A DNA stretch of 30,634 bases, taken from IMG/VR virus record IMGVR_UViG_2563366824_000009. One strand, written 5' to 3'. The DNA is from a virus (taxonomy: Duplodnaviria; Heunggongvirae; Uroviricota; Caudoviricetes). The position numbers were made by a program, and so were the translations under genes. Positions 173 through 30,634 of the stretch are shown here, in pieces (the first letter of the stretch is position 1; the number at the start of each line of letters is the position of its first letter). The notes below the pieces were generated by a model. It was not told the DNA's origin and searched no databases. It saw only the letters and a list, made by a program, of their open reading frames with translations.

Positions 173-1222
173 TTATGCAACCTCTGCCGCCACATTGTCG
201 CCAACATACAGCGATAACGGATTGAGGGTTACAGCTTGTTCAAGGTGGTCAGGAGCAAAGTGCGCATACTTCATTGTTTCTCGAATATTGGCATGTCCGA
301 GAATTTTCTGCAGCACCAGTATATTCCCTCCGTTCATCATAAAATGCGCACCAAAAGTATGACGCAAAACGTGCGTCTTCTGCCCTTCCGTCAATTCAAT
401 ATTCGTTAGTTTGAGCATCTTTTTAAACTCCTGATAGCAGGGTTTAAACATTCTGCCTTGACGTACGGACAACTCGTCGTACAGCCATTTAGGAATAGGA
501 ACTGTGCGATTCTTCTTACCTTTGGTTTTGGTGAACGTTAGTTTATATGGAGAAAGTTGAGGTCGGGTCAATCTCTCCGCTTCCCCCCATCGAGCCCCGG
601 TTGCAAGGCACACCTTAACAATCATGGTGAGGTCTTCTTTGCCGTATTGCTCGCAGGCTCGAAACAGCTCCGGGAGCTGAGACAAAGTTAGCCAGGACAT
701 TTCTTTCTCAGCTTCTTTGAATACTCGGATCCCATCAAGTGGATTGGGTAGGCTCCACTCCCCTAACCGGCGGAGCTCATTAAACACTGCTTCTAGGTAT
801 TGTTGTTCGCGATTGACGGTTATAGGTTTGGCGATCCATTTCGAGGGGTCTTTATGATAACCATTGTCTATTTCACCACGTAATCGACGGTCACGATAAT
901 GAGCCCAGTCTTTCGCGGTAAGGCGAGATGCAATCGGGTCGCCAAGTCCATTACATACGATTTGAAGCTTTGCAAACCTCGACTTACTGGCGACTAACGC
1001 TTGACCGTGCAAATTGTGCCAAAGCTGAATAATCTCGCTTAAGCGTCGGCGGTCTTCTTTCTTGCCGAGCCACGGCTTATCTTCACTCTCGCTTTTGGTA
1101 AATGCTTCAAATGCCTCGGCCTCACCTTTGGTATTGAATTGCCGACGTATACGCCGCCCTTCTCGACCATTTGGATAGAGTTCACACAACCATTTTCCAC
1201 TTTTTTGTTTACTTACAGTCAT
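173..1222 (-). CDS. int: Tyrosine integrase (P2/186 type)
   Basis: 349 aa; C-terminal tyrosine-recombinase motifs in translation (HVLRHTFGAHF ... LGHANIRETMKYAHF); position at prophage edge next to repressor. Confidence 0.9.
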   Translation of the reverse strand: MTVSKQKSGKWLCELYPNGREGRRIRRQFNTKGEAEAFEAFTKSESEDKPWLGKKEDRRRLSEIIQLWHNLHGQALVASKSRFAKLQIVCNGLGDPIASRLTAKDWAHYRDRRLRGEIDNGYHKDPSKWIAKPITVNREQQYLEAVFNELRRLGEWSLPNPLDGIRVFKEAEKEMSWLTLSQLPELFRACEQYGKEDLTMIVKVCLATGARWGEAERLTRPQLSPYKLTFTKTKGKKNRTVPIPKWLYDELSVRQGRMFKPCYQEFKKMLKLTNIELTEGQKTHVLRHTFGAHFMMNGGNILVLQKILGHANIRETMKYAHFAPDHLEQAVTLNPLSLYVGDNVAAEVA

Positions 1223-1246: not shown

Positions 1247-1585
1247 TTAATTACAAAGGGCTGTAGCGGCATCAATCACCGGTGAAATTGAAATTTTAAC
1301 GCCGTCATACTCAGGGTCATCCTTCCATACGTCATCTAAGTTAGACCCCTCCAGCTTTCCTGATTTAACAGCATCTACCGCCATGCCATTCAGAGGATAT
1401 CTATCATCAGTTTTGATGTCATACACAAAAGCATAAGCACGGTTAACACATGATACCTTTGCCTTTTCAAAGGTTAGAGGCCACTTGTCACCATATGCAG
1501 CGCCGTCTATCTCTTTAAACTTCTCAGCGGCTATGACTGAGGAAGAAAGTGCAATGCAGACTATCGCAAATATAAACTTTTTCAT
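1247..1585 (-). CDS. Secreted small protein (signal peptide, two Cys), possibly DUF2511/YebY-like; cargo (moron) gene
   Basis: 112 aa; N-terminal MKKFIFAIVCIALSSSVIAAEK looks like a Sec signal peptide; WPLTF...VSCV...YPLNG...ALC pattern; local sequence visibly AT-richer than flanks. Confidence 0.6.
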   Translation of the reverse strand: MKKFIFAIVCIALSSSVIAAEKFKEIDGAAYGDKWPLTFEKAKVSCVNRAYAFVYDIKTDDRYPLNGMAVDAVKSGKLEGSNLDDVWKDDPEYDGVKISISPVIDAATALCN

Positions 1586-1594
1586 TACTGCTCC

Positions 1595-2440
1595 TTAAAC
1601 ATGCTTTTCCAAAGTAAAAATAACCGCACCTGATGGTGTGATATCTGAAATATTACATTCAAACTCAGCAGACTTATTTGATAACCTGACCTTTCCGCCT
1701 GGCAACCTGATTACGTCAAAAACATCGAGTGCGCCATCAATACCAATAAGCCAGCGACCATTTCCTATCTTCGAGTTAGAACTATCAACAAGCCAAGATG
1801 TGCTCACACCATCAATAAACACTAAATCATCAGTATTTGATGGAACCATAGATATATCAGGAGTCCAGCGTCCGATATCTTTGAGTTCGCCCGCCTCGAG
1901 GCGGCACTTTCTAATCGTTAAAGCATTTGCCGGTTCACCATCATTACTGTTACGCATCTGGCCTTTTCCGGTTGATAACCATTCTAACGATACGCCAGTA
2001 TCAAGGGCGCAAGTGACAACCACGTCACCGGGGAAAAAATCGCGTCTAACCCAAGTGCTTATAGTGCCGGAAGATATGCCTAATAAATCTCCAAGCTCTT
2101 TTTGCAGAGTAAAACCATACGCATCGAGAATCCGACGCAGAACCGCCCTCCCTCCATTTGCCATGATTTCATCATAGAGTTGCTTACCTTTAAGCTTAGT
2201 TTTCACCACTTCAAATCTTGCATTTGCAAGCTCACCATTAATTAGCCATCGCAGGTCAGCTCCAGTATCAAGAGCACACTCAACGAAAACGTTGCTAGGG
2301 ATTACGTTTCTAGCAAGCCAGCTACTCACGTTGTTTGCATGTATGCCAAGCCTTTCGGCTAGTTCCTTTTGCTGCTTAAAGCCGTATGCAGAAAGGACAC
2401 GTTCCAATGCGGCAGACGCATTAACATCATTTTTAGACAT
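1595..2440 (-). CDS. Immunity repressor: tandem 186-CI-type HTH domains plus C-terminal S24 (LexA/CI-like) domain
   Basis: Start placed at ATG 2440 (MSKNDV...), not the ORF-track start at 2629; two internally repeated HTH modules (LERVLSAYGFKQQKELAERLGI... and LRRILDAYGFTLQKELGDLLGI...); C-terminus with DISMVP ... GKVRL resembling LexA Ser/Lys region. Confidence 0.7.
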   Translation of the reverse strand: MSKNDVNASAALERVLSAYGFKQQKELAERLGIHANNVSSWLARNVIPSNVFVECALDTGADLRWLINGELANARFEVVKTKLKGKQLYDEIMANGGRAVLRRILDAYGFTLQKELGDLLGISSGTISTWVRRDFFPGDVVVTCALDTGVSLEWLSTGKGQMRNSNDGEPANALTIRKCRLEAGELKDIGRWTPDISMVPSNTDDLVFIDGVSTSWLVDSSNSKIGNGRWLIGIDGALDVFDVIRLPGGKVRLSNKSAEFECNISDITPSGAVIFTLEKHV

Positions 2441-2461
2441 ATGACACCAACAATAATTTTG

Positions 2462-2490
2462 TTTACAACCAAAATTTAGCGATCTATATT
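2462..2490 (+). promoter_or_regulatory. Putative sigma70 early (lytic) promoter: TTTACA - 17 nt - TATATT
   Basis: -35 TTTACA at 2462..2467, 17-nt spacer, -10 TATATT at 2485..2490, upstream of the Cox-position gene; in switch region between repressor and early operon. Confidence 0.45.
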
Positions 2491-2553
2491 GGTGCTCATC
2501 GACCAAGATGCACACCACTGCACTACATTTCAAACAACAGGAGATAATGCGAT

Positions 2554-2925
2554 ATGTCAGATGCAAAATCAATCTCGACGAATGATTCGCAAAACTCACA
2601 AAATCAAACTGTGCTGTTAGATCCAACACAGTTTGATGCCATCGTTACCGCCATGCTGCCAGCTCTCCAGACAATGATTCGCTCCGCTATGTCAGACACG
2701 ATGACTGTGAAAGACTTCGCCGCTACTCGCGGTGTTAGCGAGCGTCTGGTCTGGCAATGGCTCGATGAGGGAGTCCTTCTCAAAGCTCCGACCAAAGACT
2801 TTTCCAACAAAGAGGAAGCTGCTAAACGAAGCCGAACCCTCGTAAACGTAAAAGCATGGCGCGATAAGCTGACTCAACAAGCGATTGATTGTCGCTACAT
2901 CGACCAGCGCACCGCTCTTAACTGA
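2554..2925 (+). CDS. Excisionase-family HTH DNA-binding protein in Cox/Apl position
   Basis: 123 aa; AGGAGA SD 9 nt upstream; HTH-like segment MTVKDFAATRGVSERLVWQWLDEG; first gene of rightward early operon opposite the repressor. Confidence 0.55.
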   Translation: MSDAKSISTNDSQNSQNQTVLLDPTQFDAIVTAMLPALQTMIRSAMSDTMTVKDFAATRGVSERLVWQWLDEGVLLKAPTKDFSNKEEAAKRSRTLVNVKAWRDKLTQQAIDCRYIDQRTALN

Positions 2926-2957
2926 ATTTGATTATGCAAGTTAGAGGGAATTTAACC

Positions 2958-3467
2958 ATGTTTGATTTTCAGGTTTCCAAACATCCCCACTATGACGAAG
3001 CATGCCGCATTTTCGCACAGCGTCACAACATGGCGAAGCTGGCCGAGCGTGCAGGTATGAACGTTCAAACGTTACGTAACAAGCTCAACCCGGAACAGCC
3101 TCACCAGTTCACGCCACCTGAATTGTGGCTGCTGACTGACCTGACCGAAGACTCAACCCTCATTGATGGTTTTTTAGCGCAGATTCACTGCCTACCATGC
3201 GTGCCGGTTAATGAGTTGGCTAAAGACAAATTGCAGTCTTATGTCATGCGCGCAATGCGTGAACTCGGCGAACTGGCGAGCGGCGCGGTATCTGATGAGC
3301 GTCTGACCACTGCCCGTAAGCACAACATGATTGAAAGCGTTAACTCTGGTATTCGCATGTTGTCATTGTCGGCTCTGGCACTGCATGCACGTCTGCAGAC
3401 TAATCCTGCAATGTCGAGCGTGGTCGATACCATGAGCGGTATTGGCGCATCGTTTGGTCTGATTTGA
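2958..3467 (+). CDS. cII: Phage CII-family regulatory protein (186 CII-like)
   Basis: Start at ATG 2958 (MFDFQVSKHPHYDEACRIF...) with GAGGGAA SD; sequence recalled as close to 186 CII; position after Cox/Apl gene. Confidence 0.7.
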   Translation: MFDFQVSKHPHYDEACRIFAQRHNMAKLAERAGMNVQTLRNKLNPEQPHQFTPPELWLLTDLTEDSTLIDGFLAQIHCLPCVPVNELAKDKLQSYVMRAMRELGELASGAVSDERLTTARKHNMIESVNSGIRMLSLSALALHARLQTNPAMSSVVDTMSGIGASFGLI

Positions 3468-6791: not shown

Positions 6792-6811
6792 TACTGTATA
6801 AATATACAGTA
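6792..6811. promoter_or_regulatory. LexA box (SOS operator) TACTGTATAAATATACAGTA
   Basis: Palindromic CTGT-N8-ACAG match; candidate -35 TTGCCA at 6778..6783 places the box over the -10 region; 20 nt upstream of ORF 6831. Confidence 0.7.
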
Positions 6812-6830: not shown

Positions 6831-7013
6831 ATGGTTGGCGAACATTTCAGCCGAACGCAGCAAAAGTGGGCTTGTGTGCAATTTATTGCCGAGGTATCTC
6901 TGATTGCAAACTGCAAGCCATCAGACTTAAAGCTCGCGCTCACTCTCATTGCAGACCTAGCAAACAGCGAAAATAACGAAACCGAAGATGATAATTTTTA
7001 TAAGGCTGATTAG
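6831..7013 (+). CDS. N-terminal part of Tum-like SOS-induced gene (60 aa), ends at in-frame TAG
   Basis: GGGAGG SD 6 nt upstream of ATG; in the same reading frame as the DinI-like ORF, separated only by TAG plus one codon. Confidence 0.45.
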   Translation: MVGEHFSRTQQKWACVQFIAEVSLIANCKPSDLKLALTLIADLANSENNETEDDNFYKAD

Positions 7014-7016
7014 ATT

Positions 7017-7250
7017 ATGAGAATCAATATCACGTTGGATAAAGAGCAAAAAATTAGTCAGGCAACATTGGATGCACTTGAGGCTGAACTGTACCGCAAT
7101 CTTCAACCTATTTACCCAAAGACTGCTATCCGAATTCGCAAGGGCTCCGCTAATGGCGTTGAACTAAGCGGTTTGAAACTGGACGAAGATAAAAAACGAG
7201 TAATGGAAATCATGCAGCAGGTATGGGAGGACGATAGCTGGCTGCATTAA
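7017..7250 (+). CDS. DinI-family protein (DinI-like domain as in 186 Tum C-terminus)
   Basis: 77 aa; MRINITLDKEQ...DALEAELYRNLQ...RIRKGSANGVELSGLKLDEDKKRVMEIMQQVWEDDSW matches DinI family pattern and length. Confidence 0.85.
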   Translation: MRINITLDKEQKISQATLDALEAELYRNLQPIYPKTAIRIRKGSANGVELSGLKLDEDKKRVMEIMQQVWEDDSWLH

Positions 7251-18244: not shown

Positions 18245-18803
18245 GTTTATTGTCTCCTGGTTTTTTAGGGAGCAATTTTTCAGCCCAAGATGCGAGTCGG
18301 CTTAGAACTAAGTCTGAAAAATATCCTAATATAAAACAAATCGAGAATGCAATTTTGGTCTTACCATGCCCTTTAATGGAGGATACAAACGTATCCGGAG
18401 ATAATAGCGTATAAGAACAAAAAGCCACTAAAGCAGCTAAGAACGGAATAAAAATCCTCCAGTAGAACTTATGGGATTCCCAAGGGAAATTATACTGATT
18501 GTTTTTCCCTCTAGCAGTTACTCTATAAAACCATTTTGCATTATACACCCACCCTCCAAAAAAACCGCCAAGAATAGAAAACAAAGATATTTTATTATTA
18601 TATGTCAGCTCAAAAACAAATTGAAAAAGAAAGGCGAGAATGCAACCTATTACAAAAAGAACTATTAAATAAGCAAATTCGAATTTTATTTGTTCACAAT
18701 CGTTATTAAAATAAGGCACAACCTCATCATCGCCTAAGGTTTTTTTTCTTTCAGTCATTTGCCAAACACCTTCATTTTTTACTGTGAGCCAGGGTAATTG
18801 CAT
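18237..18803 (-). CDS. Integral membrane protein (about 4 predicted TM helices), first gene of two-gene cargo operon
   Basis: About 188 aa from ATG 18803 (alternative start at 18761 with AGGTG SD); hydrophobic segments FAYLIVLFVIGCILAFLFQFVF, ISLFSILGGFFGGWVY, YWRIFIPFLAALVAFCSYTLL, KIAFSICFILGYFSDLVL; its stop overlaps the GTG start of the HIT gene. Confidence 0.65.
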   Translation of the reverse strand: MQLPWLTVKNEGVWQMTERKKTLGDDEVVPYFNNDCEQIKFEFAYLIVLFVIGCILAFLFQFVFELTYNNKISLFSILGGFFGGWVYNAKWFYRVTARGKNNQYNFPWESHKFYWRIFIPFLAALVAFCSYTLLSPDTFVSSIKGHGKTKIAFSICFILGYFSDLVLSRLASWAEKLLPKKPGDNKRE

Positions 18804-18934
18804 ATTCAACTTGGCTATTCTAATTAATTCTCACAAGATTTCATAGATGTTGAGTAGACCTCTCAGAAGTTGTTTCATTCCTCACAGAATCCATCTCGAT
18901 TGCCACTAATCTTGCCGGGCGTCATCCTTCCCAT

Positions 18935-29468: not shown

Positions 29469-30634
29469 TAACGGGGATGGCAATTGACGCCGGTGCCAGC
29501 CTTGCACCGGCATTTATGTTGACGCTGAACAGCCAGGACATTACCAGCAATTTTAGTGACCGATTGATTTCTCTCACCATGACCGATAACCGGGGTTTTG
29601 AGGCTGACCAGCTCGATATTGAGCTTGATGATACCGACGGGAAAGTTGAGTTACCCCTGCGCGGGGCAGTGCTGACGCTGTGGCTTGGCTGGCAGGGCTC
29701 GGCGTTGCTGAATAAGGGGGATTTTACGGTCGATGAGATTGAGCACCGGGGAGCGCCTGACACCCTGACCATCCGGGCGCGCAGCGCGGACTTTCGCGGC
29801 ACGCTAAATTCCAGGCGTGAAGAGTCATGGCATGACACCACCATCGGAGAACTGGTCAGCACCATCGCAAAACGCAATAAACTGACGGCCAGTGTCGCTG
29901 ATTCACTGAAAAAAATCCCGGTACCGCATATCGACCAGTCGCAGGAGTCCGACGCGGTGTTTCTGACCCGGCTAGCTGACCGAAACGGAGCTGCGGTGTC
30001 AGTGAAAGCGGGGAAATTGCTGTTTCTGAAAGTCGGTAGTGCGATGACGGCCAGCGGCAGACCCATCCCGCAAATGACGCTGACCCGTAGCAATGGTGAC
30101 CGTCATCAATTTGCTATTGCCGACCGTGGGGCTTATACCGGCGTAACGGCAAAATGGTTGCACACCAAAGACCCGAAGCCGCAAAAGCAAAAAGTGACGC
30201 TGAAACGCCAGCCAAAAGAGAAACACCTACGCGCACTGGAGCACCCGAAAGCAAAACCTGTCAGCAAAAAGACAAAGGCCAAAAAAGAGCAGGAGGCTCG
30301 CGAGGGTGAGTATATGGCCGGTGAAGCCGATAACGTGCTGGCGCTGACAACGGTCTACGCATCAAAGGCGCAGGCGATGCGTGCCGCTCAGGCTAAGTGG
30401 GATAAACTGCAGCGAGGCGTTGCGGAGTTTTCAATCACACTGGCGCTAGGGCGAGCGGATTTATTTCCTGAGACGCCTGTACGTGTGTCGGGCTTTAAGC
30501 GCGTCATAGACGAGCAGGCATGGTTAATCAGCAAGGTGACCCACAACCTCAATAATAACGGTTTCACGACGGGCTTAGAGCTTGAGGTTAAACTCTCCGA
30601 TGTGGAGTACAGCTCAGAAGAAAATGAGGAGTGA
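29465..30634 (+). CDS. D: Tail protein D (late control D family)
   Basis: 389 aa (P2 D about 387 aa); last gene of tail cluster; stop at window end. Confidence 0.9.
   Translation: MITGMAIDAGASLAPAFMLTLNSQDITSNFSDRLISLTMTDNRGFEADQLDIELDDTDGKVELPLRGAVLTLWLGWQGSALLNKGDFTVDEIEHRGAPDTLTIRARSADFRGTLNSRREESWHDTTIGELVSTIAKRNKLTASVADSLKKIPVPHIDQSQESDAVFLTRLADRNGAAVSVKAGKLLFLKVGSAMTASGRPIPQMTLTRSNGDRHQFAIADRGAYTGVTAKWLHTKDPKPQKQKVTLKRQPKEKHLRALEHPKAKPVSKKTKAKKEQEAREGEYMAGEADNVLALTTVYASKAQAMRAAQAKWDKLQRGVAEFSITLALGRADLFPETPVRVSGFKRVIDEQAWLISKVTHNLNNNGFTTGLELEVKLSDVEYSSEENEE

Follow-up and report, generated by a model that had tools for sequence, protein, structure and literature searches.

The gene at 1595..2440 (minus strand) of the virus record IMGVR_UViG_2563366824_000009, a stretch of 30,634 nucleotides (nt) that was analysed as a whole and is referred to as the window, encodes a protein that is, judged by its sequence, the cI immunity repressor of a PSP3-type E. 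coli prophage (genus Eganvirus, 186-like), and this repressor carries two helix-turn-helix (HTH) domains of the phage 186 CI type in tandem. We propose with moderate confidence that these two domains share the work: the first, HTH1, would read the immunity-specific operator at the lytic promoter pR, the second, HTH2, would read constant flanking and late-promoter sites, and induction would depend on the antirepressor TumA and proceed without self-cleavage of CI. The pairing of domains with sites, the looping between sites and the target of TumA are what we infer from how the domains are arranged and conserved and from the positions and statistics of the sites described below.

The reading frame opens with an ATG at 2440 and codes for 281 amino acids (aa) plus stop. 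Pfam assigned two PF07022 (Phage_CI_repr) stretches to the protein (E 1.5e-47), followed by PF16452 (Phage_CI_C) at residues 176-269 (E 4.6e-19), and NCBIfam gave no informative family. When residues 1-86 were compared with residues 87-281 by BLASTP, residues 10-70 aligned without gaps with residues 99-159, 31 of the 61 positions being identical (51%, E 2e-22). The solved structure of 186 CI (2fjr) aligns with residues 100-274 alone (30% identity), and the N-terminal HTH is therefore the extra copy. An AlphaFold model of the monomer (mean predicted local distance difference test, pLDDT, 74; predicted template modelling score, pTM, 0.50) consists of two five-helix bundles (residues 8-68 and 97-157) and a beta domain (176-278) connected by low-confidence, flexible linkers (pLDDT <50 for residues 72-81 and 162-171). 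HTH1 thus comprises residues 10-70 (2231..2413, minus strand), HTH2, which is collinear with the N-terminal domain of 186 CI, residues 97-160 (1961..2152, minus strand), and the C-terminal domain, by family a 186-CI-type oligomerisation domain, residues 176-281 (1598..1915, minus strand). These results bear out the initial annotation, which had read the protein as a 186-CI-type HTH duplicated in tandem with a further domain behind it; such an architecture differs from those of 186 CI and P2 C. Its limits for the first repeat (10-70) hold, whereas those for the second (90-150) were about 10 residues too low. The protein departs from the rule of one HTH per chain that applies to 186-type CIs, and we regard this as its variant feature.

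The two copies evolve in strikingly different ways. Across 120 homologue clusters, alignment columns have a mean entropy of 0.18 bit in HTH2 as compared with 0.88 bit in HTH1 and 0.73 bit in the C-terminal domain, and 155 double-HTH loci contain about 30 different helix-turn-helix strings in HTH1 versus a single core, S(S/T)GT(I/V)STW(V/I)RR, in HTH2. HTH1 is 51-59% identical to its counterparts in the phages Midge and PSP3; for HTH2 the identity is 92-93% at the protein level, with synonymous changes in 44-54% of the unchanged codons, indicating that HTH2 is held constant by purifying selection and not by recent recombination or exchange. HTH2 also retains every feature of the PF07022 profile.

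The hypervariable HTH1 is accompanied by variable DNA at the lytic promoter. A candidate pR (TTTACA-17-TATATT, 10/12) is located at 2462..2490 on the plus strand, and its hexamers are kept in all relatives. Centred on its -35 hexamer is the palindrome AATTTTGTTT-ac-AACCAAAATT (2455..2476), which is specific for the immunity type, occurs nowhere else in the 30.6-kb window and is our candidate HTH1 operator. The symmetric or repeated element around the pR -35 hexamer differs from one HTH1 type to the next, and in the intergenic region between cI and the apl analogue the cI-proximal 60 base pairs (bp) vary among relatives, whereas the apl-proximal part from about 2500 to 2576 is invariant, including in Kosakonia and Brenneria. 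Where the same HTH1 type occurs in different backgrounds, the pR-proximal 60 bp are 85-92% identical in three pairs and 68% identical in the PSP3-type pair, with C-terminal domains of 23-76% identity; between loci of different HTH1 type the same 60 bp are 65-72% identical, with C-terminal domains of 62-99% identity. The HTH1 type thus tracks the pR-proximal 60 bp, and HTH1 and its operator therefore behave as an exchangeable immunity cassette. Operators of the 186 type (ATTCAC-N5-GTGAAT) were matched in the window at chance level only. A 14-nt inverted repeat at 2603-2637 within the apl analogue was considered as an operator and dismissed, its arms not being conserved in the phages SW9 and PSP3.

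The element that we assign to HTH2 is an 18-bp palindrome, AACTTGCA-WW-TGCAAGTT, which is the promoter operator element of single-HTH relatives with the recognition helix of HTH2. In Rahnella and Ewingella, single-HTH CIs (P0139) share this helix and have 79% identity to HTH2; upstream of their gene, in 20 species, stands AACTTGCATTTGCAAGTT (15-18/18), which lies within the spacer of a divergent TTGACA-17-TAGATT promoter. Neither an Apl analogue nor cII, int or tumA is found near this element, and since the first three are missing, the CI itself is the likely reader of its palindrome; the divergently transcribed gene was compared with the Apl analogue and is unrelated to it. The element belongs to a P2-like remnant (L013-L032, e.g. 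L013:331-3591) that occupies the same spot beside aroF-tyrA in at least 20 species and contains, beside the single-HTH cI, a phrog_602 gene, a DksA-like gene and replication gene A. The remnant appears to be inherited vertically and may have been domesticated.

Scanning the window with the 18-mer gave only three positions with at least 14/18 matches (mean of shuffled sequences, 0.3). The first, ATCTTGCATTTGCAAGCT at 2215..2232, matches AACTTGCAWWTGCAAGTT at 16/18 with a perfect core, CTTGCATTTGCAAG; it is located inside cI at +208 nt, where it encodes the residues ELANA of the HTH1-HTH2 linker, and is referred to as the FL-like site. The second, the FR-like site AATTTGATTATGCAAGTT (2925..2942, 15/18), lies where the apl analogue meets cII, a position that matches 186 FR, and the third (18795-18812, 14/18) is probably a chance match. 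A further copy with 17/18 matches, the pB site, covers the -35 hexamer of the ogr/B promoter, 15-32 bp past the right end of the window. The FL-like, FR-like and pB sites are thus found at positions equivalent to those of FL (inside cI, +269), FR (apl/cII junction) and pB in 186, and palindromes occupy these positions also in PSP3, SW9, Midge, RCIP0057 and prophages of Enterobacter and Kosakonia. Among close loci the FL-like site is present in 76 of 88 and the FR-like site in 77 of 88, against a background of one match per 23.6 kb. The FL-like site persists in two different reading frames, encoding ELANA in one and NLNLQD or SLHLQD in the other, which points to selection at the DNA level. Neither 186 nor 4LV2017 has the palindrome, nor do single-HTH CIs with another helix, where GATATC-type repeats are found instead. 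Where the HTH2 helix is altered to PSGTMSAW, in a few loci, the half-sites have TTA(A/C)A in place of TTGCA, which, from these few sequences, hints at covariation of helix and site.

The positions of these sites also bear on a different use of the two domains. The initial annotation had suggested that a double-HTH chain could bind a dyad operator as a monomer or extended operators as a dimer. In this reading both HTHs of one chain would occupy adjacent half-sites of the same operator, a single monomer spanning the dyad or a dimer spanning an extended, four-part operator at pR. Judged by the model, the flexible interdomain linker would make such side-by-side binding physically possible; the motif CGATYTA, present beside the variable pR palindromes in most types, could serve as a constant contact, and the independently duplicated 4LV2017 lineage, in which both helices are alike, would suit this mode. 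In the PSP3 type, however, one domain is variable and the other invariant, and pR has no HTH2-type site: the best match to the HTH2-linked palindrome is 12/18 in 2400-2660 and 9/18 in the pR-proximal part, the strong sites being 250-460 bp away at the FL and FR positions of 186. The suggestion was thus not borne out, and we consider joint reading unlikely.

Induction appears to be controlled by an antirepressor operon. A LexA box, TACTGTATAAATATACAGTA (6792..6811, plus strand), with one mismatch to the consensus and no equivalent in shuffled sequences, is located upstream of tumA (6831..7013, plus strand), which codes for a predicted antirepressor of 60 aa that is 98% identical to TumA of PSP3. 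It is followed by tumB (7017..7250, plus strand), coding for a DinI homologue of 77 aa (PF06183, E 7e-24) that shares 47% identity with the C-terminal half of 186 Tum. What is one tum gene in 186 is split here in two, with a stop codon and 3 nt between the parts; a comparison of TumA with the N-terminal half of 186 Tum detected no similarity. The Tum protein of 186 is an antirepressor that binds CI and blocks its binding to DNA. For the split tum region of PSP3, antirepressor activity has been ascribed to the upstream half (PMC3121763, citing a personal communication). Between phages of three immunity types TumA is conserved at 98-100% identity, and in the phage collection it occurs in exactly the ten phage records with a double-HTH CI.

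From this constancy and co-occurrence it follows that TumA must recognise a constant part of CI and therefore probably docks on HTH2 or the C-terminal domain. The same observations can be explained if HTH2 does not read DNA at all and is constant as a docking surface for TumA or as a structural spacer, with HTH1 alone reading the operators. The constant palindrome at three 186-like positions would then lack a reader; it is the promoter operator of single-HTH CIs that possess the HTH2 helix and reside in an element without TumA and Apl, and a domain relieved of DNA binding would have kept all PF07022 profile features. We therefore regard a DNA-blind HTH2 as improbable. Docking of TumA on HTH2 as such is compatible with a division of labour between the two domains, and both can hold.

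A second route to induction, RecA-stimulated autoproteolysis of the LexA/lambda type, would cut CI at Ala183-Gly184 by means of Ser197 and Lys250 and part the HTHs from the C-terminal domain. The initial annotation had seen a LexA-like motif arrangement in this domain, and the motifs are indeed there ('EAGE', 'DISM' as D195-I-S197-M, and 'GKVRL' as G249-K250-V-R-L), S197 and K250 being near-invariant inside the PSP3 group; they do not, however, make up a catalytic dyad. The fold of the domain is distantly S24-like: Foldseek matched it at the level of the fold to LexA, lambda CI and UmuD' (template modelling score, TM, ~0.55-0.60; 13-19% identity), yet the best structural match is the C-terminal domain of 186 CI (2fkd; TM 0.89, root mean square deviation 2.0), and 186 CI, which has the S24-like beta fold likewise, is not self-cleaving. 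No match to Peptidase_S24 (PF00717) was present among the 26 families that Pfam reported for CI at E <= 1, so that the profile search, with its match to PF16452, places the domain outside the S24 family. Ala183 is a Ser in most homologues and only G184 of 'EAGE' is invariant, 186 and 4LV2017 have kept neither S197 nor K250, and the gap between G184 and S197 measures 13 residues versus 34 in LexA. An hhalign alignment with LexA, which at a probability of 4% calls for caution, places 'DISM' on LexA D101-P-S-L, S119 of LexA on the variable S213 and K156 on V243. In addition, the prophage possesses the LexA-controlled antirepressor operon, the upstream tum gene of PSP3 being a reported antirepressor (PMC3121763). 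The idea of a self-cleaving, LexA-like C-terminal domain is thus not supported, and we consider self-cleavage highly improbable. It would be a mistake to annotate the entries of ~280 aa named 'phage repressor protein CI' from E. coli, Klebsiella, Salmonella and Enterobacter as LexA-like self-cleaving repressors.

Based on these data the proposed division of labour can be outlined as follows. A 186-type CI would have gained a second, N-terminal HTH, and the two domains would have split the work. Pairs of HTH1 would bind the type-specific palindrome over the -35 hexamer of pR (2455-2476) and shut off the lytic operon, making HTH1 the immunity determinant, while pairs of HTH2 would bind the constant palindrome at 2215-2232, at 2925-2942 and at the -35 hexamer of the ogr/B promoter. 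By homology, the C-terminal domain would dimerise and may form a wheel like that of 186 CI; as in 186, the FL- and FR-like sites would loop to pR and the pB site would repress the late activator directly. Upon DNA damage LexA would leave its box at 6792-6811, TumA would be made and CI would be inactivated without being cleaved. An extension of this scheme, which we put forward only tentatively from the sequence comparisons, is a two-tier immunity code on one chain, with a private cassette of HTH1 and pR operator and a public HTH2 that would read the shared FL, FR and late-activator sites and be the target of the shared antirepressor.

Several points weigh against the division of labour. All pairings of domain and site come from sequence comparison, and the constancy of HTH2 could stem wholly from TumA docking or a structural role. 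Repression of pB in trans by HTH2 alone would lead to partial cross-immunity among all PSP3-type phages, which is awkward to reconcile with a diversifying HTH1, and would blur heteroimmunity unless single sites require a pR-nucleated wheel in cis. The loci with the PSGTMSAW helix are few and possibly closely related, and in a more distant set just 5 of 66 loci have an FR-like site of at least 14/18. At pR, some HTH1 types have, in place of one palindrome, direct repeats (two copies of TCGATTTA at a distance of 22 bp), the semi-conserved CGATYTA at the pR -10 hexamer lacks an explanation, and the HTH1 operators are not exactly delimited. Finally, the relative placement of the domains in the CI model is unreliable (pTM 0.50).

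The invariant DNA block between pR and a candidate lysogenic promoter spans ~77 bp (2500..2576) and includes TGCA-N6-TGCA at 2509-2522, the two TGCA cores being 10 bp apart. It is invariant in all relatives, even in Kosakonia and Brenneria, where the adjoining coding sequence of the apl analogue diverges beyond alignment, and its reader may be the Apl analogue. TGCA-N6-TGCA was rejected as an HTH2 site as both spacing and order of the half-sites are unlike those of the 18-bp palindrome. Weak matches to the latter (11-12/18) are located at 2558-2575 and 2593-2610, 35 bp apart. The candidate weak promoter pL (TTGATT-17-CATTAT, 8/12) lies in the block at 2544..2572 on the minus strand and would face pR as in 186; it was missed by the promoter scan and was read from the sequence by analogy with 186.

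The window is a complete P2/186-like prophage of E. coli. Its position 1 directly follows the stop codon of yfiB, its position 30634 is the stop of tail gene D, and the ogr/B gene, the ogr/B promoter with its palindrome and attR are found just outside its right end, beside rplS. It is 100% identical to E. coli strain AST217, and 67 of 5,426 complete E. coli genomes contain 80% or more of its first 6 kb. The cI gene is placed in a 186-type setting between int and a divergent lytic operon of the apl analogue and cII. In the lysogenic operon it is followed by a gene for a DUF2511 protein (1247..1585, minus strand; a moron corresponding to PSP3 orf28), which has a signal-like N-terminal sequence and no counterpart at this position in 186, and by the P2/186-type integrase gene (173..1222, minus strand). 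The first gene of the lytic operon codes for the Apl/Cox analogue (2554..2925, plus strand; phrog_3554, weak Cox-like match), whose PSP3 counterpart was termed a singleton (PMC3448106). Downstream of it is a 186-type cII (2958..3467, plus strand). The open reading frame list has cII start at TTG 2928, whereas the homologues of 169 aa in PSP3, SW9 and Midge, from which we set the start, favour ATG 2958, and with this start the FR-like site remains intergenic. Further 186-like neighbours in the prophage are a DksA-like gene and replication gene A.

Relatives of this CI are numerous. Identity is 91.5% to the CIs of the Salmonella phages SW9 and SI22, 73% to those of PSP3 (NP_958086; genome AY135486/NC_005340) and SEN1, and 67% to those of Escherichia phage Midge and Klebsiella phage RCIP0057; all of these closest phage CIs are full length, and the phages belong to or are near the genus Eganvirus. 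Homologues of 276-289 aa form more than 100 clusters (90% identity) across Enterobacterales, IMG/VR contains at least 553 relatives, and a scan of 1.84 billion representatives with HTH2 only returned proteins of 255-358 aa carrying two HTH stretches in about twenty clusters (50% identity). The double-HTH architecture is therefore widespread. The initial annotation had named a C-terminal domain outside the S24 family, or a tandem repeat both widespread and already characterised, as what would refute it; the placement outside S24 and the wide occurrence were found, while our literature searches for the double-HTH CI architecture returned no paper that describes it. Of PsP3 CI, Nilsson et al. 2011 say only that it has 'a longer C-terminal domain' (PMC3448106).

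If the two-tier code is true, a resident prophage could restrain the activation of late genes in a heteroimmune relative, and a single SOS signal could induce all the relatives that reside together. Among alternatives to the lambda switch phage 186 is the one studied best, and one of its oddities is that the lone HTH of CI reads distinct types of operator on a 14-mer wheel; a widespread natural relative appears to split these jobs. With one domain free to diversify and one frozen, the PSP3 type would offer a direct way to see how immunity specificity can evolve while long-range cooperativity and induction stay intact. It would also be a ready-made modular repressor scaffold for synthetic circuits, in which HTH1/operator cassettes could be swapped on a constant chassis for looping and induction.

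Among the closest known systems are the phages PSP3, SW9, SI22, SEN1, Midge and RCIP0057, which have in common with the window the double-HTH CI (67-92% identity), the three palindrome positions and TumA; our literature search found no biochemical study of their CIs. PSP3 and Midge differ from the window in the HTH1 helices and the pR-proximal DNA, and, by these sequences, the three are probably mutually heteroimmune. The single-HTH CI of Rahnella and Ewingella (196 aa) has the C-terminal domain and the HTH2-type helix of the window CI but one HTH, and from sequence comparison it looks like the ancestral one-domain state; HTH2 of the window groups with single-HTH CIs (62-81%), HTH1 being a diverged copy.

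Two PF07022 stretches followed by a CI C-terminal domain are also found in the CI of the Klebsiella phage 4LV2017 (Elveevirus; L003) and in P0137, P0162 and P0170. In 4LV2017/P0137, P0162 and P0170, however, the copies of one protein are 55-68% identical to each other and 20-53% identical to either domain of the window CI, which indicates that the 186-type HTH was doubled independently at least three times. The paired recognition helices of these proteins are nearly alike, and they may act unlike the PSP3 type; they lack AACTTGCA-WW-TGCAAGTT sites, and a search for inverted repeats as operators of the 4LV2017 type yielded nothing informative. The search of the representative library with HTH2 further returned proteins of 420-1312 aa (P0159, P0164, P0195, P0199, P0211, P0231 and P0253) with 5-7 tandem HTH stretches and acidic linkers.

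The CI of 186 assembles into a wheel of seven dimers (14-mer) and represses the late activator directly at pB. With the window, 186 shares the HTH family, the C-terminal domain, the order int-cI/divergent apl-cII, convergent pR and pL (candidates in the window) and LexA-controlled induction of the Tum type. It differs in that one HTH serves all operators whereas the window CI has an extra N-terminal HTH, in operator sequences that are unrelated to those of the window, in having a single tum gene in place of tumA and tumB, and in its Apl, which belongs to a different family than the Apl analogue. According to the title of Shearwin et al. 2002, cited in PMC3675496, the HTH of 186 CI binds two distinct recognition sequences. 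The flanking sites of 186 loop to the pR-bound CI wheel, aiding repression of pR and relieving pL (PMC3675496). Thus, 186 handles two types of operator with one promiscuous HTH, where in the PSP3 type gene duplication would do so. In summary, the window CI is a member of the known PSP3-type group, and its tandem architecture, together with the apparent split of tasks between the two HTHs, is an undescribed variant of the 186 switch.

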